Virus record (IMG/VR): IMGVR_UViG_3300027772_000010
Span: 35,834-99,833 of that record
Direction: 5' to 3' (one strand)
Length of the DNA stretch: 64,000 bases
DNA from: a virus
In this document: in pieces, positions 5,713 to 24,271 of the stretch
Layout of the letters: each line of letters starts with the position of its first letter
How positions within the stretch are numbered: position 1 is the first letter of the stretch
Notes under the pieces: model-generated
What the model saw: only the letters and a program-made list of their open reading frames with translations
What the model was told of the DNA's origin: nothing
Databases searched by the model: none
Translations under genes and position numbers: made by a program

Positions 5713-5765
5713 ACCTGAGCTACAGGGTTTTTTAGATTACACAGAAGCTAAGTGAAAGTAATCTA
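5713..5765 (+). ncRNA. Double-hairpin motif, copy 1
   Basis: ACCT-GAGCTACA-GGGT followed by TAGATTAC-ACAGAAGCTAAGTGAAA-GTAATCTA. Confidence 0.55.
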
Positions 5766-5767
5766 TA

Positions 5768-5870
5768 TAATTAAATGCACCATAACTCACTTCCCAAGGG
5801 TGAGCAGTTGTAATATCAGTACAAAGTAGAAATACTGGGGTACTTATTACAATTGAGTGCAGAGGGAAAT
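5768..5870 (+). ncRNA. Twister-like (P1-type) self-cleaving ribozyme
   Basis: AAA-P2(TGCA)-CC-...-P4(CTCAC/GTGAG; loop TTCCCAAGG)-long P5 with GAAA loop-P2'(TGCA)-GAGGG; both twister pseudoknots can form. Confidence 0.6.
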
Positions 5871-5877
5871 AAAAACT

Positions 5878-5907
5878 TAACAATCCTAAGTTGTTGAAGG
5901 CACTTAG
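5878..5907 (+). ncRNA. Compact H-type pseudoknot candidate
   Basis: TAACAA/TTGTTG stem; loop CTAAG pairs with downstream CTTAG. Confidence 0.35.
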
Positions 5908-5995
5908 TTCCCTAATAATTTACGAATATTGAATTAACAACAGTTCTTTATAGTATTTTATTAGGGTTTTAGTGTAAAACACAATCCATTATTAA

Positions 5996-6048
5996 ATCCT
6001 GAGCTACAAGGATCAAGAACTACTACAGAAGCTTAGTGAACAGTAGTT
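5996..6048 (+). ncRNA. Double-hairpin motif, copy 2
   Basis: ATCCT-GAGCTACA-AGGAT followed by AACTACT-ACAGAAGCTTAGTGAAC-AGTAGTT; loops nearly identical to copy 1, stems different but paired. Confidence 0.55.
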
Positions 6049-6216
6049 TTTATAATTAATATTAAACAATATAACTATGTTAGGAATTATAGTAATTTTC
6101 ATAATGGTCTACGGATCATATTGTGCTAAGAAAGCACACCAAGAAATAATTAACAACAAAAAACTTTTTAAATAACAAATAATTAACTTTATTAACACTA
6201 AAAATTAACAAAAAAA

Positions 6217-6816
6217 ATGGAAAATTTATTTAACAATTTACAAGAACCAACAGGAGACATTAAAGTAAGTACAGAAAAAGAATGGTTATCTCTTAATTTA
6301 GGAGGAACTATTGTACTACAAAAAGGAAATTTTTCTCAATCATTTACATATTGGGGAAATGTTAGTAAAATGAATTTTAATAACGCTAACTATATAACAA
6401 TGGAAGATTGTGATTGGGATACACATACTACTATGCTAGGCAATCTTAAAATAGATAGTATATCTAAACTTAGAACTACATTAGAGAATAGTGGGTTAAA
6501 AACACTTTCAGATAGTCTTAATTTTAGCACTGAAGAAATAAAAAAAGCTATATTTTCTATTGTTCCTAACTCAACCATAGTAAAAAATGTATTTAGAGAA
6601 AACTTTATATTATGGGAATCATTAACAGATAATGAAAAAAAAGTAATAAGAGTAAAAGATGCAATAGAAAATTACAATGATTACTTTGTCAACAACCCTT
6701 ATAAATTAAAATATTTAATCTTAAAAGAAGATGGTAAATTAGATGGTGAAACAATACCAACAATAGATCAACTAAATGAAAGATTAAATGACTTATTATT
6801 TAACATTAAAAATTAA
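6217..6816 (+). CDS. Hypothetical early protein
   Basis: 199-aa ORF with an A-rich leader. Confidence 0.8.
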   Translation: MENLFNNLQEPTGDIKVSTEKEWLSLNLGGTIVLQKGNFSQSFTYWGNVSKMNFNNANYITMEDCDWDTHTTMLGNLKIDSISKLRTTLENSGLKTLSDSLNFSTEEIKKAIFSIVPNSTIVKNVFRENFILWESLTDNEKKVIRVKDAIENYNDYFVNNPYKLKYLILKEDGKLDGETIPTIDQLNERLNDLLFNIKN

Positions 6817-6820
6817 CAAC

Positions 6821-7048
6821 ATGAATTCAAATTTTTTATCAAAAGTATGTATAGCTTTATTTTTAACAACCTTATTTTTATTAATTTCCTCATTATTATA
6901 TGTTTATCATCAAACCAATTTAAACGCAACTTTGTTTGAAGTAGAGTTAGTTGATAGAGATATATTAGTTTATGACAATGATAATTTTGTAGGATCAGTA
7001 GAATTGCAAGGGCAATTAGACAGTCTAATGACTGATTACTTGCAGTAA
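6821..7048 (+). CDS. Small membrane protein
   Basis: Second ATG (6821) preferred; N-terminal TM helix. Confidence 0.65.
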   Translation: MNSNFLSKVCIALFLTTLFLLISSLLYVYHQTNLNATLFEVELVDRDILVYDNDNFVGSVELQGQLDSLMTDYLQ

Positions 7049-7090
7049 ATTTATAAAGACATTAAACTTAACTAACAAACCTTTTAATGG

Positions 7091-7131
7091 GACTGTACCT
7101 TTTAGCATTTAGCTATTAGGTGCAGTTTTTT
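7091..7131 (+). terminator. Intrinsic terminator
   Basis: GACTGTACCT...AGGTGCAGTT stem plus T tract. Confidence 0.6.
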
Positions 7132-7156
7132 ATTTATTAACATTAACTTATTTAAA

Positions 7157-7363
7157 ATGAAAGATCCAAACTTAACAAATTTAATTGATATTAAGTTAGC
7201 TGCTTTGGTAGCTCGTAAAAAGTCTGAAAATAAACTTAGTAATCAAATAGCAGAGAATAAACTTTGGCCTTCAACATTACAAGAAAATTCAGTATCACAT
7301 TTTAGTGCTCAAAACACTAACTATAGTGCAATAATACAAACCATTAAAAATTATAATGGATAA
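7157..7363 (+). CDS. Hypothetical protein
   Basis: ORF track. Confidence 0.55.
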   Translation: MKDPNLTNLIDIKLAALVARKKSENKLSNQIAENKLWPSTLQENSVSHFSAQNTNYSAIIQTIKNYNG

Positions 7364-7485
7364 CAAATACATTTAAGGCATTGTATATAGTTGCCACACA
7401 AAACACAATATAGTTTTAAATGTATAGGTAGCTCAAACCTTAATCAGAGCTCTGTTTGTCAACTACATAATAAGTTGATACCTTG

Positions 7486-7518
7486 GTGGTTATATGGTTA
7501 AACCACTTTTTATTTTTT
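7486..7518 (+). terminator. Intrinsic terminator
   Basis: GTGGTT...AACCAC stem plus T tract. Confidence 0.55.
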
Positions 7519-7625
7519 AAATAAGATTATGACTAAAAAGAAAAAAATTAGTATAGTATTTGACTTTGAATCTGTTGTAGAAATAGATTGTTTAGATTAA
7601 AAATTAACCTATTAACAAAAAAAAT

Positions 7626-8855
7626 ATGAAATTACCAATATTCTCAGACTCATTTATAGAGTTTTTAAACAACATTAAAAAAGAATCTAGAATTGCTAGA
7701 TTAATAATATCTGTCATTCAAATGCACAATGATGGTTTTAAGAATATGTTACCTAGAGTATTAACTAATGACAATGTTAATTATATTACATATAGATCTG
7801 ATGGTAACATATCATTTTTACCTACTGGAAAAGAACACGTTGTAAATGATGACAACACTTGGTCTAGAACTAATAGACAATCTGGCAAACCAGCTAAAAT
7901 AATTCGCAAATTATTCACAGACAAAATGTTATCATTACTTAATGAACAAGACTTTGAAATATTTAATAACTACTATAAATGTAAATTTAACACTACAGGA
8001 TATAGATTTGAATTATTAGATAATACTCAAATTGCTGAAGTTTATGATATGACTTTAGAAAATGGAAGTTCAAGTCTAAATAATTCTTGTATGAATGGTA
8101 AAAGTGATTGTTTAGATATTTACACTTATTGTAAAGACTTAAAAATTTTAGCTTTATTTAACCAAAACAATGAATTAGCAGGTAGAGCATTAGTATGGAC
8201 TATTATAGATGAAGAAATAGATGGATCAAAAATTATCTTAATGGATAGAGTTTATGTAACTCAGGACTATTTATATGATTTATTTATAGAACATGCTACA
8301 TCTAATAAATGGTGGTATAAACAAGATTATAAGTCTATGCATAGTAAAACTAGTTTTATTAATTCTGAAGGAAATGTTTTATATAGAAAGTTTAAAATAT
8401 ATACTGCTACAGATTTTGACACTTATCCTTATATAGATACTTTTCAATATGGTGATGATGGTTATTTAACAAACCAGCCTGATGGTAAATATGAATATTC
8501 TAGTACAGATGGTGAAAGATCTGGAGGTGATGTTTATGATGATATTACAGGTAATTATATAAGTCAAGATGATGCAGTAACAATAGAGTATGGTGAATAT
8601 GAAGGTGAAAGAACACATATAGATAATACTGTAATGGTTAATGATTCTTATTATTGGAAAGACAGTGAAGATTTATGTATTATTAATTATGAATACTATC
8701 TTAAAGAAGATTGTGTATATTCTGATTATGATGATGAATACTATTTAGAAGACGATTGTGTATATTCTGAATATCATAGCACACATATATTAATATCAGA
8801 TGCTTATGAAGTTGATGGTAACTATTATCATCAAGATATTGTAAACAAATTATAA
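7626..8855 (+). CDS. Conserved phage protein (SCM...GRALVW...DRVY...PYIDT) with an acidic Tyr-rich repeat tail
   Basis: Motif series recalled from phage proteins encoded next to M28-like peptidases; C-terminal DCVYS repeats. Confidence 0.6.
   Translation: MKLPIFSDSFIEFLNNIKKESRIARLIISVIQMHNDGFKNMLPRVLTNDNVNYITYRSDGNISFLPTGKEHVVNDDNTWSRTNRQSGKPAKIIRKLFTDKMLSLLNEQDFEIFNNYYKCKFNTTGYRFELLDNTQIAEVYDMTLENGSSSLNNSCMNGKSDCLDIYTYCKDLKILALFNQNNELAGRALVWTIIDEEIDGSKIILMDRVYVTQDYLYDLFIEHATSNKWWYKQDYKSMHSKTSFINSEGNVLYRKFKIYTATDFDTYPYIDTFQYGDDGYLTNQPDGKYEYSSTDGERSGGDVYDDITGNYISQDDAVTIEYGEYEGERTHIDNTVMVNDSYYWKDSEDLCIINYEYYLKEDCVYSDYDDEYYLEDDCVYSEYHSTHILISDAYEVDGNYYHQDIVNKL
8691..8775 (+). repeat. Imperfect 45-nt tandem repeat (EYYLxxDCVYS x2)
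   Basis: gaatactat...gattgtgtatattctga occurs twice. Confidence 0.7.
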
Positions 8856-8874
8856 ATTATTAAACAAAAAAATT

Positions 8875-9882
8875 ATGAACAGATTACAAGAATTAAAAAA
8901 TGTATTAAAAGTACAAACCTCTTCTTATGACCAATGGAGAATGTTTGCATTTATAATAAGATATATTACTAAATTTAACAATATTTCTTATTACACAGAT
9001 AATGGTAATGTATACATTACTAAAGGAAGTGCTAACTCTTACCCTTGTGTAGTAGCTCATATGGATACTGTTCACTCTATTGTAGAAGATTTATCATTAT
9101 TAACTATAAATGAGAACATTACAGGATTTAATAATGTTACTATGACTCAAACAGGTGTAGGGGGTGATGACAAAGTAGGTATATTTATAGCCTTACAATG
9201 TTTAAATCATTTTGACAATATTAAGTTAGTCTTTTTCAGAGATGAAGAAGTTGGTTGTCAGGGATCTTATCTAGCAGAAATAGACTTTTTTAACAATGTT
9301 AATTTTGTTTTACAATGTGATAGAAGAGGTAATAGTGATTTTATTGTTAATGCAGGAAGTGTAGAATTATCTAGTAAAGACTTTCAGAATGACATTATAA
9401 CTGTAATTAAAAAATATGGATATTCTTTTAATAATGGTATGATGACAGATGTTATGGCTTTAAAAGAAATTGGCTTACCTGTCTCTGCAGCTAATATTAG
9501 TTGTGGGTATTATAATCCTCATATGGAAAATGAGTATGTTAATATTCCAGATGTAATGAACTGTTTAGATATGGTTATAAATATTATTGCTAGTTTTGGA
9601 CATAAATCATACTATCATGTATACAATACAACAGTGTCTAAAAATAAAGACAAAAACTATAATTATAATTTTTTAAAAACTAATTATGGTATTTTAGAAG
9701 ATGATTATATTTTTGACACAACAGATTCTTATACATTTAACAAATCAGAAGAAATGGATTACAAAAAAGAATATTATTATTGTAAAAATTGCTTAACTTA
9801 TGAATATAAAAGTAGTTTACAAAATGATTTATGTGATTTTTGTATGGAATATGAAACTGAAAAAAACAATTATTTCCTTTAA
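8875..9882 (+). CDS. M28/M20-clan zinc peptidase
   Basis: AHMDTVH, GGDDKVG, DEEVG, DRRG and GYYNPH metal-ligand motifs. Confidence 0.8.
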   Translation: MNRLQELKNVLKVQTSSYDQWRMFAFIIRYITKFNNISYYTDNGNVYITKGSANSYPCVVAHMDTVHSIVEDLSLLTINENITGFNNVTMTQTGVGGDDKVGIFIALQCLNHFDNIKLVFFRDEEVGCQGSYLAEIDFFNNVNFVLQCDRRGNSDFIVNAGSVELSSKDFQNDIITVIKKYGYSFNNGMMTDVMALKEIGLPVSAANISCGYYNPHMENEYVNIPDVMNCLDMVINIIASFGHKSYYHVYNTTVSKNKDKNYNYNFLKTNYGILEDDYIFDTTDSYTFNKSEEMDYKKEYYYCKNCLTYEYKSSLQNDLCDFCMEYETEKNNYFL

Positions 9883-9892
9883 ATAACTAAAT

Positions 9893-10777
9893 ATGACTAA
9901 CAACGAAGAAATATTTAATCAAGGATTAGATATACTAAATAAATTTAAACTAAATTGGAACGTAACAAAATTACCTTTATTTTCTAATTTAGAAACTGAC
10001 ATTTTACCCACCAATTCTTTTGGTATTTTTAGAACAGATACAAATGAGTGGTTAGGAACTCATGGTAAAAATTATGTTCCTTTGCAAAACTTTGATTTAA
10101 TTAATACAGTATTAACTGCTTCACAAGACATTCAAGACTTTAATTTACAAGAAGTTAGAGCTGGAGTTTTTTTAAAAGGTAGAAAAGTGTATATTCAATT
10201 ACCATTAAGGAATGAAGAAATAGGTGCTTCTCAAGTTAAAAGATGGATTACAGCATTAAATTCTCATGATGGTAGTACAGCAGTAGCTTTTGGTTCACAA
10301 CAAACAGTAATTATTTGTGAAAATACTTTTTATAAAGCTTATAAAGAATTAAATAAAGTAAGACATAGCTTACATATGAATCAAAAATTAGAAGTTATGG
10401 TAGAAGATTTAAATGCTTCTTTACTATTAGATAAATTAATGGTAGATGAATTTAAGTCTTGGATTGATAAACCTATTACTACTAATCAAATAGATGCTGT
10501 ATTAAAGTCTATAGTATCATTAGATGATACACAAGATTTGGAAGACATAAGCACTCGTAAAAGCAATCAAATCAAAAAAATTAATGAATCTTTTGAAACA
10601 GAGTTTGCTACACAAGGAGAAAACTTGTGGGGATTATTTAATGGAGTAACTCGTTACACTAACCATAATATGTTTCCTAATAAAAGTCAAAATAGTATTC
10701 AAGAAAGCTTAATGCTTGGTCAAGCAGCTAAAATTAATGAAACTGCTTTTAATCAAATACATGCATTTGCAAATTAA
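9893..10777 (+). CDS. DUF932 family phage/plasmid protein
   Basis: RTDT..LG....Y.PLQN, GRKV, NSHDGS, ICEN.F, RH and LWGLFNGVT.Y..H motifs. Confidence 0.8.
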   Translation: MTNNEEIFNQGLDILNKFKLNWNVTKLPLFSNLETDILPTNSFGIFRTDTNEWLGTHGKNYVPLQNFDLINTVLTASQDIQDFNLQEVRAGVFLKGRKVYIQLPLRNEEIGASQVKRWITALNSHDGSTAVAFGSQQTVIICENTFYKAYKELNKVRHSLHMNQKLEVMVEDLNASLLLDKLMVDEFKSWIDKPITTNQIDAVLKSIVSLDDTQDLEDISTRKSNQIKKINESFETEFATQGENLWGLFNGVTRYTNHNMFPNKSQNSIQESLMLGQAAKINETAFNQIHAFAN

Positions 10778-10791
10778 TTTAAACTAATTAA

Positions 10792-10820
10792 AGTAGTGGG
10801 AGTAAAATCCCACTATTTTT
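10792..10820 (+). terminator. Intrinsic terminator
   Basis: AGTAGTGGGA-gtaaaa-TCCCACTATT plus T tract. Confidence 0.8.
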
Positions 10821-10852
10821 ATTTTATTAACAAAAAAATTTAAATTAAAATA

Positions 10853-11053
10853 ATGGAATTTAAAATCAAGGAAATAATTGAACAAATAAAATTACTTAAT
10901 GATACCGATTTTTACAAAGTTAATAATGTAATAGATGAACAAGATTTACATCCTGAAACAAAAAAATTAGCTAACTCTAATAGACGAATAATGACTTTAT
11001 TCACTCAGCTCTATTGGCAGATAAGACAGGAAAAGAATAGGTTTTTAAAGTAA
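10853..11053 (+). CDS. Hypothetical protein
   Basis: ORF track; A-rich leader. Confidence 0.65.
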   Translation: MEFKIKEIIEQIKLLNDTDFYKVNNVIDEQDLHPETKKLANSNRRIMTLFTQLYWQIRQEKNRFLK

Positions 11054-11080
11054 CTATTAAATATAAAAGTAACAAAAAAA

Positions 11081-11476
11081 ATGAAAAAATTAATTACATT
11101 ATGCATGCTTATAATAGCTATGCAATTAAATTCTCAAATGGTTAAGACAAACCATGGTTGGGATTATTACTCTAAACTATATTTATTTAAAGAATACGGA
11201 GAAAAGGCAATATATTTTTCAAGAGTATCAAAGTTATCATATAATGAGAATGATAATGGTCTAATGATAATATACACAGATGGCCAAACAGAAACACTTT
11301 ATTTAACTCAAGTTGAACCAATATTTACATCAAAAACTGATGCAGGACATAAGTATGATGTACATGAAATGTTAAATTATACAACATATACTGGATTGTA
11401 TCTTCAAATTATATTTGCTGAAAAGGTAGTAATGAGGTTATTTTACCCAAATGGATTTAGAGAGTATTCATATTAA
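11081..11476 (+). CDS. Secreted hypothetical protein
   Basis: MKKLITLCMLIIAMQLNSQ is a Bacteroidota-style signal peptide with Q at +1. Confidence 0.7.
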   Translation: MKKLITLCMLIIAMQLNSQMVKTNHGWDYYSKLYLFKEYGEKAIYFSRVSKLSYNENDNGLMIIYTDGQTETLYLTQVEPIFTSKTDAGHKYDVHEMLNYTTYTGLYLQIIFAEKVVMRLFYPNGFREYSY

Positions 11477-11499
11477 CTTAACAAATAAAAATTAAACAA

Positions 11500-11850
11500 A
11501 TGAAAGATTATTTAAAATTTAAATTACAAGGTGCTGCAGAAGCAATTATAAATCTACATGAAAATTTAGATCCTAAATTAAATGTAAAAGCCTTTGCTTA
11601 TTATAATAACTTATCAAAAACAATTGATGTTACACTATATTGGAATAGTGATTATAACATTGATATTAATGAAGAAGTAGAAATGAGTAAAGATTTTAAT
11701 GATATTCAAGACTTTAATGAATTTTGTTTTGAAATATGGAATTTTATTGATGAATTAGAAAAGACTAAATATGATTCAGAGTATTCTCCTAAACAAATTA
11801 AAAAAGAATTTGAGGAAGAAATGAAATCAGAGTATTTAAGAGGAAATTAA
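11500..11850 (+). CDS. Hypothetical protein
   Basis: ORF track. Confidence 0.7.
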   Translation: MKDYLKFKLQGAAEAIINLHENLDPKLNVKAFAYYNNLSKTIDVTLYWNSDYNIDINEEVEMSKDFNDIQDFNEFCFEIWNFIDELEKTKYDSEYSPKQIKKEFEEEMKSEYLRGN

Positions 11851-11860
11851 TAATAAAGAT

Positions 11861-12046
11861 ATGAATGAAGCAAAATTAAAAGCAAAAGAATTAGTTGACA
11901 AAATGTTACATTGTTATCAAGGTAATATTGATGAATATACTGCTAAACAATGTGCATTAATAGCAGTTGATGAAATATTAGATGCTTGCAAAACTTATTT
12001 ATCATCATATTATTTAGAAGTTAAAAAAGAAATAGAAAAATTATAA
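11861..12046 (+). CDS. Small conserved phage protein (KAKELVDK..AKQCALIAVDEI..EVKKEIEKL)
   Basis: Pattern recalled from Flavobacteria-type phages. Confidence 0.7.
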   Translation: MNEAKLKAKELVDKMLHCYQGNIDEYTAKQCALIAVDEILDACKTYLSSYYLEVKKEIEKL

Positions 12047-12049
12047 ATT

Positions 12050-12307
12050 ATGGTACCTAATGAATTATTAAATAAAATGTTAAATTTTGCAGAATCTATT
12101 ACTGACCAATTACAAAAAGCAAAGTTAATTAATGGAGCATACAATACATGGTATTTAAATACTTCTAAACAAAATCCTTATTCTTATAATGATATAAAAA
12201 AAGAAAAAGTTTATTATGATGGTACTACTCCAATTTATTATTGTAAAGAAAATACTGCAATAATAAAAAAATTAAACACTGCTACAAAAAGAAAGTTAAA
12301 ACAATAA
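12050..12307 (+). CDS. Hypothetical protein
   Basis: ORF track; tight packing. Confidence 0.65.
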   Translation: MVPNELLNKMLNFAESITDQLQKAKLINGAYNTWYLNTSKQNPYSYNDIKKEKVYYDGTTPIYYCKENTAIIKKLNTATKRKLKQ

Positions 12308-12317
12308 AATAAATTTT

Positions 12318-12509
12318 ATGAATTATATAATTATTAAAAAAATTAAAGATTTAAAATCAAATAAAGAATTACCAGTTATTCTTTTAGACACTCATGGAGA
12401 AGTATTAGAATATCATACAATTGAAGAAGCTGAAGAAATGAGAGCTAGATTTGAGGTTAATTCAGATTCAGGACATGTATACACAATTAAAAAAATTGGC
12501 ACAATTTAA
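12318..12509 (+). CDS. Hypothetical protein
   Basis: ORF track; tight packing. Confidence 0.65.
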   Translation: MNYIIIKKIKDLKSNKELPVILLDTHGEVLEYHTIEEAEEMRARFEVNSDSGHVYTIKKIGTI

Positions 12510-12515
12510 AAAATT

Positions 12516-12713
12516 ATGGAAATTAACATTAACTTATTAGAAGCTGCATCTGAATTAGCACATGAAGTTGTATGTGCAAAGTTTAACGATGATGACAATT
12601 TAATACACATGGAAGATGCTGATGGTATATATTATACAGAAAAAGCACAAAACTTATTTGACGAATGGTACGACCATTATTACAATTTATTATTAAACTT
12701 AAAAAATAATTAA
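12516..12713 (+). CDS. Hypothetical protein
   Basis: ORF track; tight packing. Confidence 0.65.
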   Translation: MEININLLEAASELAHEVVCAKFNDDDNLIHMEDADGIYYTEKAQNLFDEWYDHYYNLLLNLKNN

Positions 12714-12718
12714 AAATT

Positions 12719-13078
12719 ATGGGAAGATATTATAGTGGAGACATAGAAGGCAAATTTTGGTTTGCTTTACAAAGTAGTGATGCTGCTAGTAGATTTGGAG
12801 GACAACAATTTGAACCATCTTATATAGAATACTATTTTGATGAACAGCATTTAAAAGATGTAGAAGCTGAAATAAAAATTATAGAAGATTCTTTAGGAGA
12901 AAAGAAACAAATTTTAGATAATTTTTTTGATAAGCAAACAGGATATACTGATAAAGATATTACAGACCTTGGTATATCTAAAGACGAATTAAAAGAATAT
13001 GCAGATCTAGGATTAGGCATTAAAATTAGAGATTGTATTAATGCTCAAGGTACTTGTTCTTTTGAAGCAGAATTATAA
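12719..13078 (+). CDS. Hypothetical protein (MGRYYSGDIEGKFWF...)
   Basis: ORF track; protein-like sequence. Confidence 0.75.
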   Translation: MGRYYSGDIEGKFWFALQSSDAASRFGGQQFEPSYIEYYFDEQHLKDVEAEIKIIEDSLGEKKQILDNFFDKQTGYTDKDITDLGISKDELKEYADLGLGIKIRDCINAQGTCSFEAEL

Positions 13079-13098
13079 CAATTAAATAAATTACCAAT

Positions 13099-13290
13099 AT
13101 GAACTACAATGAATATTTATTCTCTTGTCTATTAAAAATATATGATAAGAAATTTGAAGAATTAGAATATGATTTGCAATATAAAAACATTGGGGAACTT
13201 TATTTACAGTTTGCAGAAAGTAAATTTAACATTAATACTAAAAGTGAGTATGAATGTATAATAGACTATCTAAAAAACAAAATAAATTAA
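13099..13290 (+). CDS. Hypothetical protein
   Basis: ORF track. Confidence 0.6.
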   Translation: MNYNEYLFSCLLKIYDKKFEELEYDLQYKNIGELYLQFAESKFNINTKSEYECIIDYLKNKIN

Positions 13291-13307
13291 ACAACTAAAT
13301 AAAATTT

Positions 13308-13952
13308 ATGACTTTAAAAAACTTATTAAATAAAACTAATCTTTATTATTATGATAAAGATACTTTAACTTTTAAAGTGGGTAAATGGGTATATGTATTA
13401 TATATTTCAATTATATTTAATTTAATTATTATCGGTAAATTATTAACTAATAACCTTGATATTAACTTTAAATATATTTCTACAGTAAAAATATTACAAA
13501 CAAAAAACCAAATTATCCAACATTTAGAAGTTAAAGATCAAGACACTGCAATTGAGTGGAAAGATTTTAGAAAAAGCTTACCTTTAACTATGTCTAAGCA
13601 AGAAGAAAATAAATTACATTCTTTATATTTTAAATATAAAGATTTAATTAATTCTCACCATTGTCCACATAACTTATTATGGTATATTGCATTCAAAGAA
13701 TCAAGATTAAATTTAAATGCTAAAAATTCTAGTTCTTCAGCTCAGGGTATGTTTCAGTTTATAAATGGAACTTGGAATGTTATGTGTAAGAAAGGAGGAA
13801 TGGATATATCTGGTAGGTTTAATGAAGCTAAACAAGTGAAGGTAATGTGCATTTATCTTGATTTTTTATTCGAAAAATATAAAAATTGGCAATTAGTACA
13901 TAAAGAATACACAGGTGGAGTTATACATTATAAACTACCTTATTACAAATAA
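13308..13952 (+). CDS. Membrane-anchored lytic transglycosylase (SLT/lysozyme-like)
   Basis: KESRLNLNAKN.SSSAQGMFQF..GTW carries the catalytic Glu and GxxQ motifs; N-terminal TM. Confidence 0.8.
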   Translation: MTLKNLLNKTNLYYYDKDTLTFKVGKWVYVLYISIIFNLIIIGKLLTNNLDINFKYISTVKILQTKNQIIQHLEVKDQDTAIEWKDFRKSLPLTMSKQEENKLHSLYFKYKDLINSHHCPHNLLWYIAFKESRLNLNAKNSSSSAQGMFQFINGTWNVMCKKGGMDISGRFNEAKQVKVMCIYLDFLFEKYKNWQLVHKEYTGGVIHYKLPYYK

Positions 13953-13988
13953 ATAAATTAACTATTAACAAATTAAATTATTAACATT

Positions 13989-14207
13989 ATGCATTACTAT
14001 TCAGAAAAATTAAAAAAAGACATTAGCTGTAAAGAAATTTTATCTTATGCAGATACTTATAGAGTTGGTTATGTAAAAGCCAAGTATGAGTTAAAAGTAA
14101 AAGAAGTTCCTACAATTAAACCAAAAAAAACTATTAGACATTTTTCTAAAAATGATATGTTATTATTGGCATTATATGGATTAAATATCTTAAAACTAGA
14201 AATTTAA
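13989..14207 (+). CDS. Hypothetical protein
   Basis: ORF track. Confidence 0.6.
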   Translation: MHYYSEKLKKDISCKEILSYADTYRVGYVKAKYELKVKEVPTIKPKKTIRHFSKNDMLLLALYGLNILKLEI

Positions 14208-14209
14208 TT

Positions 14210-14524
14210 ATGTATTATCTTGTAGAACTTTTTAACAATCAATCATTAAATAGACTTGTTAAAATAAAAACAAGTATAGATTTAATGGATTATATTAGCG
14301 AAGCAGATAAAGTAGTGGTGTTTTCTACAGTTATTTGCCCAAAAATCTTTGGCATATCTATACAAACTAAATCTGAAAAAGATTCTTTAATATTTGCAAA
14401 ATTATTAGAATATGCTTCAAAGAAAAATAACAAATCAAATGATATTATCGTGGATTTATTAATTAAAATTCATTATAATAAATTTTTACAAATCACAGAA
14501 AAAATAAATAATACAAATGCTTAA
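14210..14524 (+). CDS. Hypothetical protein
   Basis: ORF track. Confidence 0.6.
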   Translation: MYYLVELFNNQSLNRLVKIKTSIDLMDYISEADKVVVFSTVICPKIFGISIQTKSEKDSLIFAKLLEYASKKNNKSNDIIVDLLIKIHYNKFLQITEKINNTNA

Positions 14525-14723
14525 TTACTTTACAATAAAACCGTTTTTTATTAAAAATAATAAGGGATCTTTAGAAGAAATTACTAAAGGAACTTATTTA
14601 TTACAAGAAGACTTTGAACAATTAAAAAGAGAATTATCATTCTATAAAGAAAGTTTTGAGAGATTAAACTCTGAATTAGATGAATGTAAAATAATCTCTG
14701 ATTTATTAACTGCTAAGCTTTAA
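14517..14723 (+). CDS. Small coiled-coil protein
   Basis: ORF track; TAATG coupling to the helicase gene. Confidence 0.6.
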   Translation: MLNYFTIKPFFIKNNKGSLEEITKGTYLLQEDFEQLKRELSFYKESFERLNSELDECKIISDLLTAKL

Positions 14724-15763
14724 TGATAGATAATATTCAACAACAAGCAATTCAAGCCCACATATTAAACAATTGTAAATCTATTATTGGATTGTCTGTT
14801 GGTATGGGTAAGACAAAAATTGCAATAGATAGAATTTTTAGCATAAGGGAAACAAACCCTTGTGCTAAAATTTTATTTACAGGTGCCAGAGAAATTTATT
14901 CTACAAACTTTTTATCAGAATTAACAAAATGGAATTGTAGTAAAGAAAATATAGATATGATATGTAATAAGTCTTTACATAATTATATAAAACACTATGA
15001 TTTAATTATTTATGATGAAGCCCACAAAGAAACAACTAAAGTTTATTATGAATTATTAAAACTTATAAAAATTAATTCTAATATTGAAGTTATTGGATTA
15101 ACTGGAACACCATTATTAAACCATCCTATTTATAATATTTTACCTATTTCTTATAAATATTTAATGCATGATGCTATTGAAGAAAAAATGTTAAATAATT
15201 TTGAAATGTATATTTTAAAGTATGATTTACCTGAAGATGAAAAAGCATTGTATAAATATTATTATAAGAGGTATTTAAATGCTCCTATGGTTAAACATTA
15301 TTGTCCAGAATTAAATAAATTAAAGATTTTTTTAAATAATTTAAAAAGTAAAGTTAGTATAACAAATCAAATTATTGATAAAGAATTACAAGATAAAAAA
15401 ATATTAATTTATGCTGGATCTATAGAGCAAAGTAATTTATTTAATTTTCCTGTATATAATTCTTCTCTAGATAAAGAAGAGAAAATTAAAATATATGATA
15501 ATTTTTATAAATCAAAAAAAGAAAAGTTAGTAAATGTAGGTATTTTAAAAGAATCTGTTAGTATTCCTCATTTAAAATGTGGGTTTGTATTAGGAATAGA
15601 TAGTTCAACTTCTTCTAAGCAACAACTAATAGGTAGATTTTTAAGACTAACTGTAGATGATTTATCAAAAATTTTTTTTATTGTAGCAAAAGATACAGTA
15701 GAAGAAAAGTGGGTACTAAATGGTATGGAAAATTTTAAACAAATAAAAATAATTAATATTTAA
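14723..15763 (+). CDS. Superfamily 2 helicase
   Basis: VGMGKT, DEAH, LTGT and QLIGRFLR motifs. Confidence 0.85.
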   Translation: MIDNIQQQAIQAHILNNCKSIIGLSVGMGKTKIAIDRIFSIRETNPCAKILFTGAREIYSTNFLSELTKWNCSKENIDMICNKSLHNYIKHYDLIIYDEAHKETTKVYYELLKLIKINSNIEVIGLTGTPLLNHPIYNILPISYKYLMHDAIEEKMLNNFEMYILKYDLPEDEKALYKYYYKRYLNAPMVKHYCPELNKLKIFLNNLKSKVSITNQIIDKELQDKKILIYAGSIEQSNLFNFPVYNSSLDKEEKIKIYDNFYKSKKEKLVNVGILKESVSIPHLKCGFVLGIDSSTSSKQQLIGRFLRLTVDDLSKIFFIVAKDTVEEKWVLNGMENFKQIKIINI

Positions 15764-15765
15764 TT

Positions 15766-16641
15766 ATGACAACATTTAACAAAGAAACATCTAGATTAAG
15801 TTATTCTTCTTTAACTAGATTAATAAAAGAAGGTAAAGATTCTTTTCTAAATCCTGTTTATAGAAAATCTAATGCTTTAGAAAAAGGAACAGTTATAGAC
15901 AAAACAGTATTTAAAGAAGAATTTACAGAATTAATATTAGATATATTAATTCCTAAACCTCAACCAAAGTCTATTATAGATTACATTATTGATAATAAAA
16001 AAGAGTTTGACTTAGTTTCTGTAGAAGAAGCAAGCCAAGCAATGGAAGTTAAGTCTAAGAATTATCAAAAAATGTTAGATACAATCTTAGAATACCAAGA
16101 TTATATAGAATATTATAAAGATCCAAAAAATAAATTGTTAAAAACAAACTATGATTTAGGTCAAGAAATTGGAAATTATTTATTAAAAGATGAACAAGCT
16201 TTATATTTATTTTCTAGTGGCCAAGCTCAATTTGAATATAGTTTTAAATATAGAGACTTTAACATATTTATTAAATTAGATTATTTAAGAATAGATCATG
16301 TTAATAAAGAAATAATTGTAACAGATTTAAAATCTAGTAGTTATCCTCCAAAGTTTCCTGATAGTGTTAAAAAATATTTTTATCACTTACAAGGTAAACT
16401 CTATTTAATGGGTATAGAAGATTTTATGGAAAAAAATAATTATAGTAACTATACTTTAAGGCCTTTTCATTGGGTGGTATGTAATTCACTAAAAGTTGAT
16501 GAACCACTTATTTATCCTTTATCATATCGTGATGAAATAGAGGGTAAAGTATTAATTGATGATGCCTTAGATTTAATTGAAAAATATATTAAAAATGAAT
16601 GGAAAGATATTGAAGTATCCCCAGAAGCCCCAATTTTTTAA
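15766..16641 (+). CDS. PD-(D/E)XK exonuclease (RecE/Cas4-like)
   Basis: LSYSSL, KLD, DLKS and YHLQ..LY motifs. Confidence 0.75.
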   Translation: MTTFNKETSRLSYSSLTRLIKEGKDSFLNPVYRKSNALEKGTVIDKTVFKEEFTELILDILIPKPQPKSIIDYIIDNKKEFDLVSVEEASQAMEVKSKNYQKMLDTILEYQDYIEYYKDPKNKLLKTNYDLGQEIGNYLLKDEQALYLFSSGQAQFEYSFKYRDFNIFIKLDYLRIDHVNKEIIVTDLKSSSYPPKFPDSVKKYFYHLQGKLYLMGIEDFMEKNNYSNYTLRPFHWVVCNSLKVDEPLIYPLSYRDEIEGKVLIDDALDLIEKYIKNEWKDIEVSPEAPIF

Positions 16642-16660
16642 AGAATTAGAAGAGTTAAAA

Positions 16661-17233
16661 ATGACTCAGACTTCTTTATTTTTATTAAATCATATAAGTA
16701 TCTTTAAAAAAATAGCTAATAATTTGTCTATTTTAACATATTTTCATACTGAAAATTTAATTAATTCTTATTTATTTAATAAAGAGATTGAATATAATTA
16801 CTCTAGTAATGTTATTTATTTAGTATTTAAAAAAGATGTAAAATATAATAATAATATTCTTTATAATAAAAAGAAATTAACTATTTTAGAGGTCTTAGAA
16901 GAAATACCAGAAACTATTGATTATTATGAAGATGATATTGCGCATGTGTTTACTATTAAACCTGATAATGAAGACTTTGATAATCATATACAATTATTAA
17001 AAAAAGGATTATATTTAAATATGTCATTATTAACTTCTGTAGATACTGTTAGTGCATTTGTAAATAAATTAATTAGTAAGCAAGGTTTATATGAAATAAT
17101 GCAAGCAGAATTAAATGTAGAAGATATACCTTATCCTTTCTTAAAGCTTTCTAAAGAAAAAGAAACTTATAGTATAGATAATGCACAAGTAATTGATGCT
17201 AAAGATTTTCAAATATTAAAACAATTTATCTAA
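16661..17233 (+). CDS. Hypothetical protein of the replication module
   Basis: In-frame ATG at 16661 preferred over the overlapping TTG start. Confidence 0.7.
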   Translation: MTQTSLFLLNHISIFKKIANNLSILTYFHTENLINSYLFNKEIEYNYSSNVIYLVFKKDVKYNNNILYNKKKLTILEVLEEIPETIDYYEDDIAHVFTIKPDNEDFDNHIQLLKKGLYLNMSLLTSVDTVSAFVNKLISKQGLYEIMQAELNVEDIPYPFLKLSKEKETYSIDNAQVIDAKDFQILKQFI

Positions 17234-19263
17234 TGAATTATATAATAACTAGAAATCAGCAATTTTTTAAAAAAATAGGTGATTATAATTACTGTTCTTT
17301 AGAAGATATGGTTTTGCCTGAAACTATTGCATTAGATACAGAAACTACAGGATTTGATCCATTTACAGACTCTATATTTTCAATACAAATAGGTACTGGC
17401 ACTAATAACTATCTTATAGATTTACAAACTCATACAGGCAATATTATTCTTTTACAAGAAGTAATACCTTTTATTGAAAACAAAATAATAATATTTCATA
17501 ATGCAGCATTTGATTTATCTTTCTTTTTTATAAAAAATTATTTTATAAAAAATGTAAGAGATACAATGTTAGCTTCTATGATTTATTATAATGGAGATCC
17601 TTCTATAAGAAATTCTTTTAAAGAATGTATGAATAGAGAATTAAATATTTATTATGATAAAACTGAACAAGGTAATATAGCTACAGTTCAATTATCTCAA
17701 CCTTCAACTATTGAATATTGTTTTAATGACGTAGATAAACTAATAGACTTACATAATAAATATTTAGAAAAATTAACAGATTATAATGCTTTAGAAACTT
17801 ATGTTTTACATTGTAGCCATATAAGAGCTTTAACTTATATTCAATTATGTGGATTGCCTTTATCTAAAGATGCTTGGCAAAACAAAATGGATATTGACTA
17901 TAAAAAATATAAAGAAGCTGAATATATAGTTAAAGAATATATTTTTGATAATCTTCCTAAATATAGAAATTTACAATTAGAATTATTTTCTACTGAAAAA
18001 AAAATTAATTGTTTATTATCTTCTTCTCAACAAATGATACCTGTATTTAAAAGTTTAGGTATTAATGTTGAGATAGATGAAAAAGGAGTTGTTAAAGAAA
18101 GTATAGAAAAAAATGTTTTATCTAAATCTAAACATGAATTTGTAAAATTATGGTTAAATTTTAAAGAAAATGAACATAATGTAACCACTTTTGGTAGTGG
18201 TATTTTAAATAAAATACAACCTGATAATAGAGTATATACTAGATTTAATCCTATATTAGATACTGCTAGAATTTCTTCAAGAAAAGGAGAGATTAACTTT
18301 TTGAATTTTCCTGCAACTAAAGAAACAAGAGAATGTTTTATAGCTAATAATGGTTATAAAATTATAGTAGCAGATTATGCAGGTCAAGAAACAATTGTAG
18401 GTGCTGATATTACAGGAGATTTTGCTATGATTGAATCTATTGTAGATAAAAAAGATTTGCATTGTGCATTTGCCAGAGTTTTATATCCTGAAATAAAAGA
18501 TTTAACTGATGCAGAAATTATTAAAGAACATAAAGCTAAAAGAAATGCTTCTAAAGGGCCTAGATTTTGCTTTCAGTTTGGAGGTACAGGCTATACTTTA
18601 GCACTAAATGAAGGCTTACCTATTGAAGAAGGTATGCGAATTGAAAGTTTATTTAAACAATTACATTCTGGTATTTATGAGTATGGTAATAATAAATTAA
18701 AAGAAGCTATTAATAAAGGATATATTGAATATGCTTTAGGTTTCAAACTTAGATTACCTAATTATAAATATTTTATAGTTGCACATGCTGATATTTTAAA
18801 ATTTGATAATAATTTTTGGGAAACTTATAGGTTAGGTAAAGCAGAGTATAAGAATAAAAAAGAAGCAGACAAAGTATTTGATTATTATGAAGTTAAAAAT
18901 TATGCTGCTTATGAATTATTTTTAAGTAATAAACATAAGATAAGTGATTACTTTACTTTAAAATCTCAGTATCTTAGATTATGTTTAAATGCACCAACTC
19001 AAGGAACTGCAGCACACCAAACTAAATATGCTACTGTATTGTTATTTAATGAAATAGAAAAAAATAATGACTACTGGAATGTTAGAATTGCTAATGTTAT
19101 TCATGATGAGATTGTCTTGGAAGTAAAAGATTCTTTATGTGATAAATATAAAGTTATTTTAGAACAAAGCATGATTAATGGAGGTAATTTATTTCTAACT
19201 AATCCAGTCTTATTTATGAGTGCAGATGCTAATGTAGCAGAGTCTTGGTACGCTGCTAAATAG
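17233..19263 (+). CDS. polA: DNA polymerase family A with 3'-5' exonuclease
   Basis: DTETTG, HNAAFD and YCFND exonuclease motifs; TARISS, DYAGQE (A), RxxxKxxxF (B), HDE (C). Confidence 0.92.
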   Translation: MNYIITRNQQFFKKIGDYNYCSLEDMVLPETIALDTETTGFDPFTDSIFSIQIGTGTNNYLIDLQTHTGNIILLQEVIPFIENKIIIFHNAAFDLSFFFIKNYFIKNVRDTMLASMIYYNGDPSIRNSFKECMNRELNIYYDKTEQGNIATVQLSQPSTIEYCFNDVDKLIDLHNKYLEKLTDYNALETYVLHCSHIRALTYIQLCGLPLSKDAWQNKMDIDYKKYKEAEYIVKEYIFDNLPKYRNLQLELFSTEKKINCLLSSSQQMIPVFKSLGINVEIDEKGVVKESIEKNVLSKSKHEFVKLWLNFKENEHNVTTFGSGILNKIQPDNRVYTRFNPILDTARISSRKGEINFLNFPATKETRECFIANNGYKIIVADYAGQETIVGADITGDFAMIESIVDKKDLHCAFARVLYPEIKDLTDAEIIKEHKAKRNASKGPRFCFQFGGTGYTLALNEGLPIEEGMRIESLFKQLHSGIYEYGNNKLKEAINKGYIEYALGFKLRLPNYKYFIVAHADILKFDNNFWETYRLGKAEYKNKKEADKVFDYYEVKNYAAYELFLSNKHKISDYFTLKSQYLRLCLNAPTQGTAAHQTKYATVLLFNEIEKNNDYWNVRIANVIHDEIVLEVKDSLCDKYKVILEQSMINGGNLFLTNPVLFMSADANVAESWYAAK

Positions 19264-19308
19264 TGTAAAAAAATTAATAACTTTTAAAATAAAAAATATG
19301 AGAAACTA

Positions 19309-19695
19309 ATGAGTAATAAACAAAGAAGAAAGGGACATCTATTAGAACAATTAACTGTAAAAGATCTAAGAGATATTTTCCCAAAAGCAAAGACTTCAAG
19401 AAATGCATCTCATTTACTTGATAGTTGTAAAGTAGATTTAGCTTTTTTACCTTTAAATATTCAATGCAAAATGGGCTATTTAAATAATAGACCTAAATGG
19501 GATATTTTAAGGGATGAGAGCAAAGAACTACTAGAAAAAAATTATCCAAAAAATGACTTAATTCATAAACATCCGTTTATTTTAAGACATAAAATGGGTA
19601 GAACAGATATTGCTTCCATGGATTGGAAGTTTTTTTTAGAAATTTATAAATTTTATGTTACAAACAACTCAAAGCAATTTGAAGGATACCTCTAA
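19309..19695 (+). CDS. Holliday junction resolvase-like PD-(D/E)XK nuclease
   Basis: RRKGHLLEQ...VD....NIQCK pattern. Confidence 0.7.
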   Translation: MSNKQRRKGHLLEQLTVKDLRDIFPKAKTSRNASHLLDSCKVDLAFLPLNIQCKMGYLNNRPKWDILRDESKELLEKNYPKNDLIHKHPFILRHKMGRTDIASMDWKFFLEIYKFYVTNNSKQFEGYL

Positions 19696-19808
19696 TTTAC
19701 TTAGAGATAAAAAAAGTAATTTTAGTATGTTACCAGAATTATTTATTTTAGATAAAAAAAATAATAGAGAAAATGTAAATACATTGATAAACAATTATGA
19801 AATTTTTG

Positions 19809-19816
19809 TATCTTTG
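19809..19816 (+). promoter_or_regulatory. Bacteroidota sigma70 -7 box (TATCTTTG)
   Basis: TAnnTTTG about 100 nt upstream of the helicase operon. Confidence 0.45.
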
Positions 19817-19914
19817 TACTCTCAACATTTAGCCAATCTTGAATACAAAAAATTTTGTCAAGAATGTGAATAAATGTTATTTAAAATTATTTGAACCCAT
19901 TGATTAAATTATAA

Positions 19915-20415
19915 ATGATTACAGAAGAAACAGTAGGTAAATTATTAATCAATTATCCTAAATGCAAATTTCCAAACCCTTTATTAAGGAATGGATTAAT
20001 ACGATTTATTGATAATAATGAATCAAACACAGATTTATCTAATTTTGAAGTAACAAATTTAGGTTTAAATGTACTTAATGGAACAAAATATGTAAGTGAA
20101 ATAACTGATGATTTTGTTGAAAATTATTATGAAAAATTTACTCAAACTATGTTAGGTATTAATAAAGTATCTTTTAGTCCAAAATCTTTAATTAAGAAAA
20201 AACTAGAAGTATTTATTAATAAATATAAAACATCTTTTGATGAAATTTTAAGAGCAGTAGACTTTTACCATCAAAACATTAAAGATAATGGAAATCTTGC
20301 CTTCTCCCTGGATGCCCAATACTTTATAGAAAAAAATGGTGGAAGCTTACTATTAGATAATATATTAGAAATGCAAAAAGGAGTGTTTATTAAAAATGAT
20401 AAATTAGTATTCTAA
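19915..20415 (+). CDS. Hypothetical replication-module protein
   Basis: Coupled (TAATG) to the DnaB-like gene. Confidence 0.7.
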   Translation: MITEETVGKLLINYPKCKFPNPLLRNGLIRFIDNNESNTDLSNFEVTNLGLNVLNGTKYVSEITDDFVENYYEKFTQTMLGINKVSFSPKSLIKKKLEVFINKYKTSFDEILRAVDFYHQNIKDNGNLAFSLDAQYFIEKNGGSLLLDNILEMQKGVFIKNDKLVF

Positions 20416-21533
20416 TGGAAATATTAAATAGAATTAAAGAAAATAAACAACAATTATTAGATGGGTATATTAATTGTGTTCCCAATCCTTTTAATGGTAT
20501 GAAAAAGTACTTTAGTGGTATTTTTCCTGGAGCATTAGTTTGCGTTACTGCTGAGACTTCAGTAGGTAAAACTTCTTTAGCTAAATATATTTATGTATTT
20601 AGCGTAGCAGATTATATATTATCATTAAAAAACCCATCTGATTTAGATTATGTTTGTTATTGGTTTGGATTAGAAGAATCAGTAGAAGAATTTGAGATTA
20701 GTATTATTCAGTATGCTTTAGCTAAATATTACAATGTCAATAAAACTCAAGATGAATTATTATCAAGGATTAATCCTTTAGATGAAAAAACTATTGAATT
20801 AATGGAATCTACTATAATTAAAGATTATTTTAATTTAATAAAGAAATTTATAATATTTGATGACCATACGTCAAATCCTACTGGTATTTATAAACAATGT
20901 AGGAATTTATCTTATTCTAGAGGCCAACACATTAACAAAACAATTGAAACTAAAGATGGTCCATTGGAAGTCTATAGTCATTATAAACCTAATAATCCTA
21001 ATGAAATTGTAACAGTAGTTATAGATAATGTTAATATCTTAGAACCTGAAAAAAATGATTTAGGAATTCCATTAGATTTATCTGGAAGTATAGACAGAAT
21101 GGTTAATTCTTATGCTAGAAAACAAATGACTAAACATTGGAACTGGCATGTATGTTGTGTTCAACAACAACAGATGGCTGCAGGAGATTTAAATCACTTT
21201 AAAGCAGGTAGATTAGAACCTGAGCCTCAGAAATTAGGAGATAATATAAAAGTAGCAAGATCTTATCAAGTTATTTTAGGATTATTTTCTCCTTACAAAC
21301 ACAAACTAAACAATTATTATGGTTATCAAATTTTAGAATCAGATAAATCTCATGGGTTAGAAGATTGTTTTAGATCTATTCACATGTGTAAGAATAGATT
21401 TGGAAGAACAGGTGTGGCTGAACCTATCTTTTTTAATCCAAAAGGATTTAGTTTTGAATCTTTACCTGAGCCTAAAAATAGTTTAGAAATTACAAATTTT
21501 ATAAATAAAAAAAATCAAATTTTAAATGAGTAA
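20415..21533 (+). CDS. DnaB-like replicative helicase
   Basis: AETSVGKTS Walker A, VIDNV Walker B, QQ and KNRFG arginine finger. Confidence 0.85.
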   Translation: MEILNRIKENKQQLLDGYINCVPNPFNGMKKYFSGIFPGALVCVTAETSVGKTSLAKYIYVFSVADYILSLKNPSDLDYVCYWFGLEESVEEFEISIIQYALAKYYNVNKTQDELLSRINPLDEKTIELMESTIIKDYFNLIKKFIIFDDHTSNPTGIYKQCRNLSYSRGQHINKTIETKDGPLEVYSHYKPNNPNEIVTVVIDNVNILEPEKNDLGIPLDLSGSIDRMVNSYARKQMTKHWNWHVCCVQQQQMAAGDLNHFKAGRLEPEPQKLGDNIKVARSYQVILGLFSPYKHKLNNYYGYQILESDKSHGLEDCFRSIHMCKNRFGRTGVAEPIFFNPKGFSFESLPEPKNSLEITNFINKKNQILNE

Positions 21534-22263
21534 AGAAAATTTTTTATTACCCACAAAACCCCAACAACCAACTGTAGTTAATCCAAGAACTATGGTTATT
21601 TTTTCTCAAAAAAAAACTGGTAAAACTCATGCATTATCTCAACTATCTAATTCTCTTATTTTAGATATGGAAGGAGGTGCAGATTTTTATGAATGTACAA
21701 AAGTTAATATGACTAATCTTAATGAGTTTGATACAATTATACAAGCTTTTTCTGAACAAAAACCCCAGTATGATTATATTATTATTGATACAGTTACTTC
21801 ATTAAAAGAAAAAGTTCTTAATCAGTTAGCAGTAAGATCTTACAATAGAGAAGAAAATAAAAATGAATCTTTTGATTTTGATGTAGATAAGTTAGCTTAT
21901 GGCAAAGGTCAAGTATATAAAAGAGAAGCTTTATTTAAAATTATGGAATTTTTTACAAAGTTCTGTAAGACTTTAATAGTAGTAGGGCATGTATCTGACA
22001 AATCAGTAACTGCAACAGGTCAAACTATTAAAGAATTAAATTTAGAAGGTAAACTAAAAGATTTATTGGCTTTAAGAGTAGATGCAATTGGATATATGTA
22101 TAGAGACCCTGAAAATAAAAATAGTAATATACTATCTTTTAATCACACAGATGATGTAATAGGCGGATCTAGAAGTAAGCATTTAAGAAATAAAGAGTTT
22201 AAAATTTCTGAACTTAATGAGAAAGAAGAACTTATAACTTTTTGGAATCAAATTTTTATTTAA
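21526..22263 (+). CDS. AAA_24/Sak4-like ATPase
   Basis: SQKKTGKT, LDMEGG, IIIDTVT and GH motifs. Confidence 0.8.
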   Translation: MSKENFLLPTKPQQPTVVNPRTMVIFSQKKTGKTHALSQLSNSLILDMEGGADFYECTKVNMTNLNEFDTIIQAFSEQKPQYDYIIIDTVTSLKEKVLNQLAVRSYNREENKNESFDFDVDKLAYGKGQVYKREALFKIMEFFTKFCKTLIVVGHVSDKSVTATGQTIKELNLEGKLKDLLALRVDAIGYMYRDPENKNSNILSFNHTDDVIGGSRSKHLRNKEFKISELNEKEELITFWNQIFI

Positions 22264-22297
22264 TAATTAACAATTTAAACAAATAATATAAATTTAT

Positions 22298-23131: not shown

Positions 23132-23143
23132 TTAAACTCTATT

Positions 23144-24157: not shown

Positions 24158-24236
24158 TTAATATATTAATGTTATATTATTTAATAATTTTAACATTTAA
24201 TTTAATTTTAAAAAGTTTTATTTGTTAAAAACACTG

Positions 24237-24244: not shown

Positions 24245-24271
24245 TAAGCTAAACCATAAAAATCAAATTAT

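Follow-up and report, generated by a model that had tools for sequence, protein, structure and literature searches.

Layout of the locus

The window, i.e., the whole stretch of DNA analyzed here, covers 64,000 nucleotides of a virus record in IMG/VR (IMGVR_UViG_3300027772_000010, positions 35,834 to 99,833). The phage looks crAss-like from its genes, and its family-A DNA polymerase is nearest to Crassvirales, at ~30% identity. A long co-directional block of replicative genes lies on the + strand (Table 1). It ends with a spore-photoproduct-lyase-like radical SAM gene (29793-30665, + strand) that adjoins the ribonucleotide reductase genes. On the other strand are three adjacent giant open reading frames (ORFs) of 2955, 2375, and 2463 amino acids (31343-55316, - strand), none with a PHROG match and only the third with the DFDxD signature. 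By this signature, the third ORF is a candidate for a crAss-type virion RNA polymerase. PHROG, PDB sequence, genome-search, and BLASTP comparisons gave no support beyond the signature itself, and the ORF has no detectable similarity to the DFDxD giants of the other phages described below.

The replicative block is headed by two copies of a small double-hairpin motif. Three serial terminator-like hairpins with T-runs stand before copy 1, as if insulating the early block from transcription upstream. A scan of the + strand found no sigma-70-type promoter upstream of either copy, and no Bacteroidota-type -7 element was seen there by eye. The short ORF that follows copy 2 is conserved in two related contigs, L123 and L030.

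Each copy comprises two hairpins joined by a 4-nt linker, the first with a stem of 4-5 bp and an 8-nt loop and the second with a stem of 7-8 bp and a 17-nt loop. Both lie where the original prediction had placed them and have the sequences it described, including a second stem that is fully rewritten between the copies and nevertheless paired in both. A pattern joining the two loops has exactly two sites in the 64 kb, with 0.00 expected from 100 shuffles, and in a covariance-model search of the window the same two copies are the only matches at E<=1. Both hairpins appear in the minimum-free-energy folds, but at weak single-sequence z-scores (-1.3 and -1.8), so support for the motif comes from comparative data and not from folding energy.

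The stretch between the copies (5766-5996) is strongly structured, at -60.5 kcal/mol (z = -6.0), and folds as a three-way junction followed by further hairpins. A CCC in one of its loops could pair with a GGG downstream. The RNA is kept in the related contigs L123, L150, L030, and L132, with variable hairpin tips and, in L123, a 120-nt insertion. It had been described as twister-like, a description that is not supported: no twister, twister-sister, hammerhead, or any other Rfam model matches it in a scan of 5300-6300 at E<=10.

Table 1. Features of the window and of related loci; positions without a prefix refer to the window
Feature	Position	Strand	Basis or remark
Motif copy 1	5713..5765	+	read from sequence; joint-loop pattern; covariance model 66.2 bits, E 7e-13
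Copy 1 stem 1	5713-5716 with 5725-5728	+	one U.G pair
Copy 1 loop 1	5717-5724	+	
Copy 1 linker	5729-5732	+	
Copy 1 stem 2	5733-5740 with 5758-5765	+	
Copy 1 loop 2	5741-5757	+	
Copy 1 loop-loop helix	5717-5723 with 5744-5750	+	
Structured noncoding RNA bracketed by both copies	5776..5990	+	fold; aligned with L123, L150, L030; present in L132
Motif copy 2	5996..6048	+	read from sequence; joint-loop pattern; covariance model 60.5 bits, E 2e-11
Copy 2 stem 1	5996-6000 with 6009-6013	+	
Copy 2 loop 1	6001-6008	+	
Copy 2 stem 2	6018-6024 with 6042-6048	+	
Copy 2 loop 2	6025-6041	+	
Copy 2 loop-loop helix	6001-6007 with 6028-6034	+	
Terminator-like hairpin with T-run	5334-5375	+	upstream of copy 1; terminator scan
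Terminator-like hairpin with T-run	5563-5588	+	upstream of copy 1; read from sequence; hairpin in cmscan alignments
Terminator-like hairpin with T-run	5600-5657	+	upstream of copy 1; read from sequence; hairpin in cmscan alignments
First ORF after copy 2 (32 aa)	6077..6175	+	hydrophobic N-terminus; start codon 29 nt past stem 2
Co-directional replicative block headed by motif	6217..31304	+	helicase, family-A DNA polymerase, ribonucleotide reductase; ORF list; Pfam
Giant ORF (2463 aa), candidate crAss-type virion RNA polymerase	47925..55316	-	signature alone: DFDED at residue 1536
Hatchet ribozyme	L130:75-250	+	75 bits; same operon as motif copy
Pistol ribozyme	L164:4850-4914	+	43.8 bits; same operon as motif copy
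DUF2693-FD RNA	L206:6266-6314	+	~180 nt upstream of another motif copy
ORF-bearing insertion (~430 nt)	L030:9115-9560	+	exactly after copy 1
Different gene	L150	-	exactly after copy 2
CPR noncoding unit	L184:1640-2023	-	headed by motif
CPR noncoding unit	L190:600-851	-	headed by motif
Motif-DUF805 composite	L239:549-676		
Motif-DUF805 composite	L242:128-256		
Motif-DUF805 composite	L240:1501-1625		
Motif-DUF805 composite	L241:1501-1625		
Motif-DUF805 composite	L204:1501-1626		
Motif-DUF805 composite	L203:1094-1220	-	

Relatives and covariation

Pattern and covariance-model searches together identify ~45 distinct relatives in crAss-like phage contigs, a few Bacteroidota metagenome-assembled genomes (MAGs), and two chromosomes from the CPR (Paceibacterota). 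Among the contigs, L123, L131, L150, and L125 come from freshwater and groundwater samples. A first, loose 17-base pattern gave mainly chance matches and was replaced by stricter patterns with a filter for hairpin potential. Scans of viral, metagenome, and genome collections with the stricter patterns produced ~30 distinct instances in which the loops are kept and both stems are rewritten. The covariance model was built from six gap-free instances and recovered every one of the pattern-found instances as well as loop variants. Neither the leader nor a motif copy had a true blastn match among GenBank phages, and the motif is absent from the crAss-like phage phi14:2, where the only match is at chance level (12.9 bits).

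The stems are well supported by this collection. In an alignment fitted to the model, whose sequences are mutually related, 90.8% of the cells are paired across 31 distinct rows, versus 50.8% in shuffles and 35-42% in slid controls; with the pseudoknot written in and 39 distinct sequences, the values are 88.8%, 60.1%, and 30-41%. Double-sided changes occur at 13 of the 13 stem pairs, and a model-independent, anchor-based script finds the same stems. The prediction of an unclassified structured element with covarying stems is thereby borne out by homologues.

The consensus RNA totals ~55 nt. Its loops are near-invariant, the first being the 8-nt GAGCUNNA and the second the 17-nt ACANNAGCUWAGUGAAA; loop 2 has a fixed length and contains no inner stem. 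Exceptions in loop 2 are an A at position 13 in L040 and L192 and a U at position 11 in L241. The linker between the two hairpins (P1 and P2) ranges from 3 to 12 nt and is variable in sequence, and the two conserved blocks differ in spacing by as much as ~10 nt among instances. In total, ~20 unpaired or tertiary nucleotides are invariant across phages with proteins that have diverged beyond recognition.

A loop-loop helix

The original prediction included a kissing contact between the AGCU sequences of loops 1 and 2, and covariation in the homologues supports it. The contact was tested with a scan that left positions 6-7 of loop 1 and positions 4-5 of loop 2 free. Three matched loop classes emerged, AC with GA, GU with AU, and UU with AA, and the Bacteroidota genomes add a fourth, AU with AA, plus one U.G case. 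Position 7 of loop 1 and position 4 of loop 2 form C-G 30 times and U-A 8 times with no mismatches, while pair 6:5 is A.A, G.U, or U-A and shifts in step with pair 7:4. The four AGCU loop-loop pairs never vary, and the two further pairs covary. One phage genome has two different matched classes. These matched, covarying classes confirm the contact; a loop-loop helix of 6-7 bp locks the two hairpins into a compact pseudoknot.

Geometric reasoning, as opposed to computation, suggests how the parts would be arranged. A linker of 3-4 nt would permit the loop-loop contact only as an H-type arrangement, and stem 1 would be stacked on the loop-loop helix with stem 2 alongside, as in the pistol ribozyme. 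This agrees with the earlier comparison to a pistol-like topology lacking P3, since the loop-loop pseudoknot is present and loop 2 has no inner stem.

RNA rather than DNA

Non-Watson-Crick pairs flanked by Watson-Crick pairs are informative about the strand that folds. On the sense strand, these are G.U in 12 cases versus A.C in 2, and the loop-loop helix has further G.U pairs on the same strand. The excess of G.U points to a folded RNA and disfavors an N4-type hairpin in template-strand DNA, where the sense-strand G.U pairs become C.A mismatches. We place the probability that the motif is an RNA structure at roughly nine in ten.

The original prediction had also raised a hairpin promoter for the virion RNA polymerase, by analogy with phage N4, in which a T7-like enzyme reads a template-strand hairpin. 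In the crAss-like phages, the motif would then be a folded single-stranded DNA promoter for the virion-packaged RNA polymerase, with early transcripts starting just 3' of hairpin 2. Its situation has promoter-like aspects: one or two copies head the early or replicative block, a terminator-like hairpin or a stop codon often precedes the motif, a start codon follows 12-42 nt later, and gene cassettes have been inserted or swapped exactly at the 3' edge of the motif. In phi14:2, which has no known early promoters, the gp66 protein uses single-stranded DNA as its template (preprint 10.1101/2020.03.07.982082). As with N4, there is a conserved hairpin with covarying stems at the head of early genes in a phage that would package a giant polymerase. 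An N4 promoter is one hairpin of template-strand DNA, with a stem of 5-7 bp and a loop of 3 nt, and is read by a T7-like enzyme (PMC4496689), whereas the motif has two hairpins with loops of 8 and 17 nt, a tertiary helix, and a fold on the sense strand, in a phage with a polymerase candidate of the DFDxD type. The motif is also present in bacteria, where a phage polymerase is unexpected: it lies beside tig and clpP in the CPR and within arrays of lipoprotein genes in Bacteroidota. In addition, the loops are invariant even though the giant polymerase candidates have no detectable mutual similarity, the spacing of the two conserved blocks varies, and phi14:2 lacks the motif. The analogy with N4 is not supported for a phage that looks crAss-like from its DFDxD ORF and DNA polymerase, and a virion-polymerase promoter is improbable.

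Relation to known RNA families

No Rfam 15 family, pistol, twister, and RAGATH included, has a match overlapping the motif at any locus in gathering-level and E-value scans of the window and ~45 loci. The window has no gathering-level match at all, and nothing matches at the motif in 5300-6300 at E<=10, so that none of these families fits. Membership in pistol or a RAGATH family, which had been entertained, is not supported on this basis. Searches of the literature by loop sequence and by topic found no description, and the motif appears new to both the literature and Rfam.

The closest comparison is with pistol (RF02679). Both RNAs are ~50 nt and have a 5' hairpin loop that is fully used in a pseudoknot of ~6 bp with a strand enclosed by P2, and both are found in phage or metagenome operons ~20-30 nt ahead of small ORFs. 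Unlike pistol, the motif has no P3 and has different conserved nucleotides, and the A-rich P1-P2 linker that is conserved and catalytic in pistol is variable here. The pistol model gives no match at the motif in the window or in eight other motif loci at E<=10, and it does detect a true pistol in L164. In that contig, the motif lies 27 nt before one ORF and the pistol ends 22 nt before another ORF of the same operon. A hatchet ribozyme shares an operon with the motif in L130.

Known ribozyme classes cluster within operons in such a fashion (PMC10085705). The neighborhood link is suggestive, with co-occurrence in 2 of ~35 contigs; no ribozyme was found in the window, in the other loci scanned, or in the remaining 134 kb of two complete motif-bearing genomes. 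The earlier suggestion of a RAGATH-type RNA gains some support. It suits an unclassified structured motif found in phage-like operons of small genes with known ribozymes, an association seen in two contigs, and it does not extend to any of the RAGATH families in Rfam 15.

The put RNAs of HK022 and EAR are processive antitermination RNAs. The put and EAR elements resemble the motif in having two adjacent hairpins located in early leaders, twice per genome and at the head of long operons. They have no sequence relation to it, and put acts on the host RNA polymerase just past the promoter, whereas the motif is often intercistronic and precedes single small genes. A hammerhead was rejected for want of a CUGANGA core or stem III, and an intrinsic terminator for want of a consistent U-tract. 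Type III toxin-antitoxin repeats, integron attC sites, and IS200/IS605 ends were also rejected, as the copies of the motif are single and syntenic and their loops do not vary.

Position among genes

Each genome has one or two copies of the motif, which are intercistronic or lie in a leader. Among 32 cases, the upstream ORF has the same orientation as the motif in 29 and the downstream ORF in 26. In at least 13 instances, loop 1 begins 11-19 nt past the upstream stop codon, too short a distance for the motif to have its own promoter. In most phage instances, a start codon follows 12-42 nt past stem 2. The downstream genes are mutually unrelated, with no family in common. A signal peptide, lipobox, or transmembrane N-terminus is found in roughly half of the ORFs that come next, and many of the downstream genes encode lipoproteins or small membrane proteins. 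No ORF follows the motif in the CPR loci or at copy 1 of the window, and in L172 two copies ~400 nt apart stand ahead of consecutive genes. A terminator-like hairpin ends 4-8 nt before the motif in L040, L146, and L135. As a rule for the motif, an upstream terminator was rejected, as only 6 of 33 instances pass a strict scan.

A long co-directional replicative block is headed by the motif in the window and in the phage genomes G005, G007, and G008. In three complete motif-bearing phage genomes of 94-124 kb, the motif occurs once each, heading a block transcribed away from the structural genes, and each genome has one ORF of 3900-5100 amino acids with DFDxD. In phi14:2, the corresponding block is of the early class, which the virion polymerase transcribes; that phage yielded no early promoter motif, and it has abundant long early noncoding RNAs with no known function (preprint 10.1101/2020.03.07.982082).

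The close relatives L030 and L150 differ right after the motif copies: a gene has been inserted after copy 1, and a different gene has been swapped in after copy 2 (Table 1). Such exact placement suggests that the motif marks a recombination or module boundary.

Bacterial loci and the DUF805 RNA

In the CPR, the motif is found once in each of two chromosomes, beside tig and clpP. It heads a conserved noncoding unit that continues with a covarying 10-bp hairpin with a U-rich tail, which is terminator-like and lies 25-60 nt after the motif, and then a long hairpin containing U.G pairs. Because its gene neighborhood differs between the two genomes, the unit resembles a small-RNA gene that is mobile or independent. 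The motif is absent from 190 related genomes (150 class-mates and 40 family-mates of CPR genome G001), indicating that it is sporadic in the CPR and ruling out a housekeeping RNA.

Within one Bacteroidota family, 4 of 17 genomes have one or two copies. Each copy in the Bacteroidota MAGs ends 1-3 nt before a DUF805 RNA (RF03081, 74-85 bits), and together the two form a composite leader of ~140 nt that lies 80-90 nt before lipoprotein genes. The composite leaders stand in arrays with a DUF805 RNA at every gene; array genes without the motif have a terminator hairpin or just a stop codon in its place. A DUF805b leader precedes the gene immediately upstream of the motif in CPR locus L184. The DUF805 and DUF805b RNAs (RF03081 and RF02914, clan CL00115) are thus physical neighbors of the motif in both Bacteroidota and CPR. 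They are, however, structures distinct from it: DUF805 RNA is absent from the window and from the phage loci, and in many cases it occurs without the motif. For this orphan RNA motif, the association provides a physical partner for joint study.

Candidate functions

The best reading of the motif is a putative new pseudoknotted RNA acting in cis. Among specific functions, a self-cleaving or processing module ranks highest, at somewhat less than even odds. The motif would then most likely be a candidate small self-cleaving ribozyme of a new class and otherwise a site for a universal host RNase. A cut in the polycistronic early transcript would give the downstream RNA its own 5' end. In the window, copies 1 and 2 would release the ~230-nt structured RNA between them, and cutting at copy 2 would in addition set free the replicative-block mRNA. 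The narrower proposal is a ribozyme class with a pistol-like pseudoknot, no P3, and a different catalytic core that punctuates operon transcripts in crAss-like phages and some Bacteroidota and CPR, here excising the 230-nt RNA; it is more tentative than the processing role in general.

A processing RNA fits best with the invariant loops in divergent hosts, the small pseudoknot, the sporadic and phage-rich distribution, the lack of a gene-family link, the intercistronic placement, and the ribozyme neighbors. Several observations are less favorable. The inter-hairpin linker, catalytic in pistol, varies in length and sequence, and the loop 2 variants in L040, L192, and L241 leave no strictly invariant candidate for a scissile dinucleotide. 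Transcription would have to read through the terminator-like hairpins just before the motif in L040, L146, and L135, and the fusion to the cis-regulatory DUF805 RNA in Bacteroidota suggests regulation as much as processing. Ribozymes co-occur in few contigs, and two other complete motif-bearing genomes have none. Weinberg and colleagues reportedly found in 2015 that the majority of ribozyme-associated candidate motifs did not cleave when tested. To our knowledge, only about ten classes of natural self-cleaving RNA have been described. The small size, invariant loops, covariation-backed pseudoknot, and hatchet and pistol neighbors would make the motif a strong candidate for a further one. Whatever its chemistry, it marks where the early transcription unit starts in a wide range of uncultured crAss-like phages, and it bears on how these phages express their early genes.

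Next in rank is a noncatalytic cis-regulatory leader, a rather doubtful alternative in which the pseudoknot would be a binding site for conserved cellular machinery, be it RNA polymerase, the ribosome, or an RNA-binding protein, and would control elongation, translation, or stability. One form of it, acting on elongation, would be a put/EAR-like antitermination element heading the 25-kb operon. The fusion with DUF805 into one leader ahead of lipoprotein genes helps this alternative, as do the location at the head of replicative blocks in four phages (the window, G005, G007, and G008), the short distance from stem 2 to the start codon, and the frequency of exported or membrane products among the next ORFs. 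Set against it are the lack of a family common to the downstream genes, the lack of any ORF after the motif in the CPR loci and at copy 1, and the lack of a candidate partner protein gene that travels with the motif; an antiterminator also needs nothing like the two closely spaced copies before consecutive genes in L172. The unrelated downstream genes count equally against a riboswitch aptamer, a compact pseudoknot that would sense a general metabolite or ion and gate downstream expression. The motif is like small aptamers in its size, in its pseudoknot, and in having invariant A-rich strands that are unpaired, and both the CPR terminator-like hairpins with U-rich tails and the tandem copies in the window lineage would suit one. 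The phage instances share no conserved expression platform, and the motif is often wedged directly behind an upstream stop codon, leaving a riboswitch slightly less probable even than the virion-polymerase promoter. Least likely of all is a tRNA D-arm mimic or a domain of a trans-acting small RNA that would decoy a tRNA-binding enzyme or nuclease or give it a handle. The motif heads noncoding RNAs in the CPR loci and at copy 1; in sequence, its loop-loop helix matches a canonical D-stem, and the part of loop 2 that follows reads like the beginning of a D-loop. The likeness was noticed post hoc and holds at ~14 of 17 positions; the order of strands differs from that of tRNA, the tRNA model and ARAGORN find nothing at the motif, and most copies lie in mRNA leaders.

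The comparison with D-arms used five tRNAs of motif-bearing phages. The likeness is between positions 5717-5723 with 5744-5757 of the window and tRNAs such as those at L223:1346-1420 and L227:4833-4905, and it may reflect coincidence, descent from a tRNA, or mimicry.
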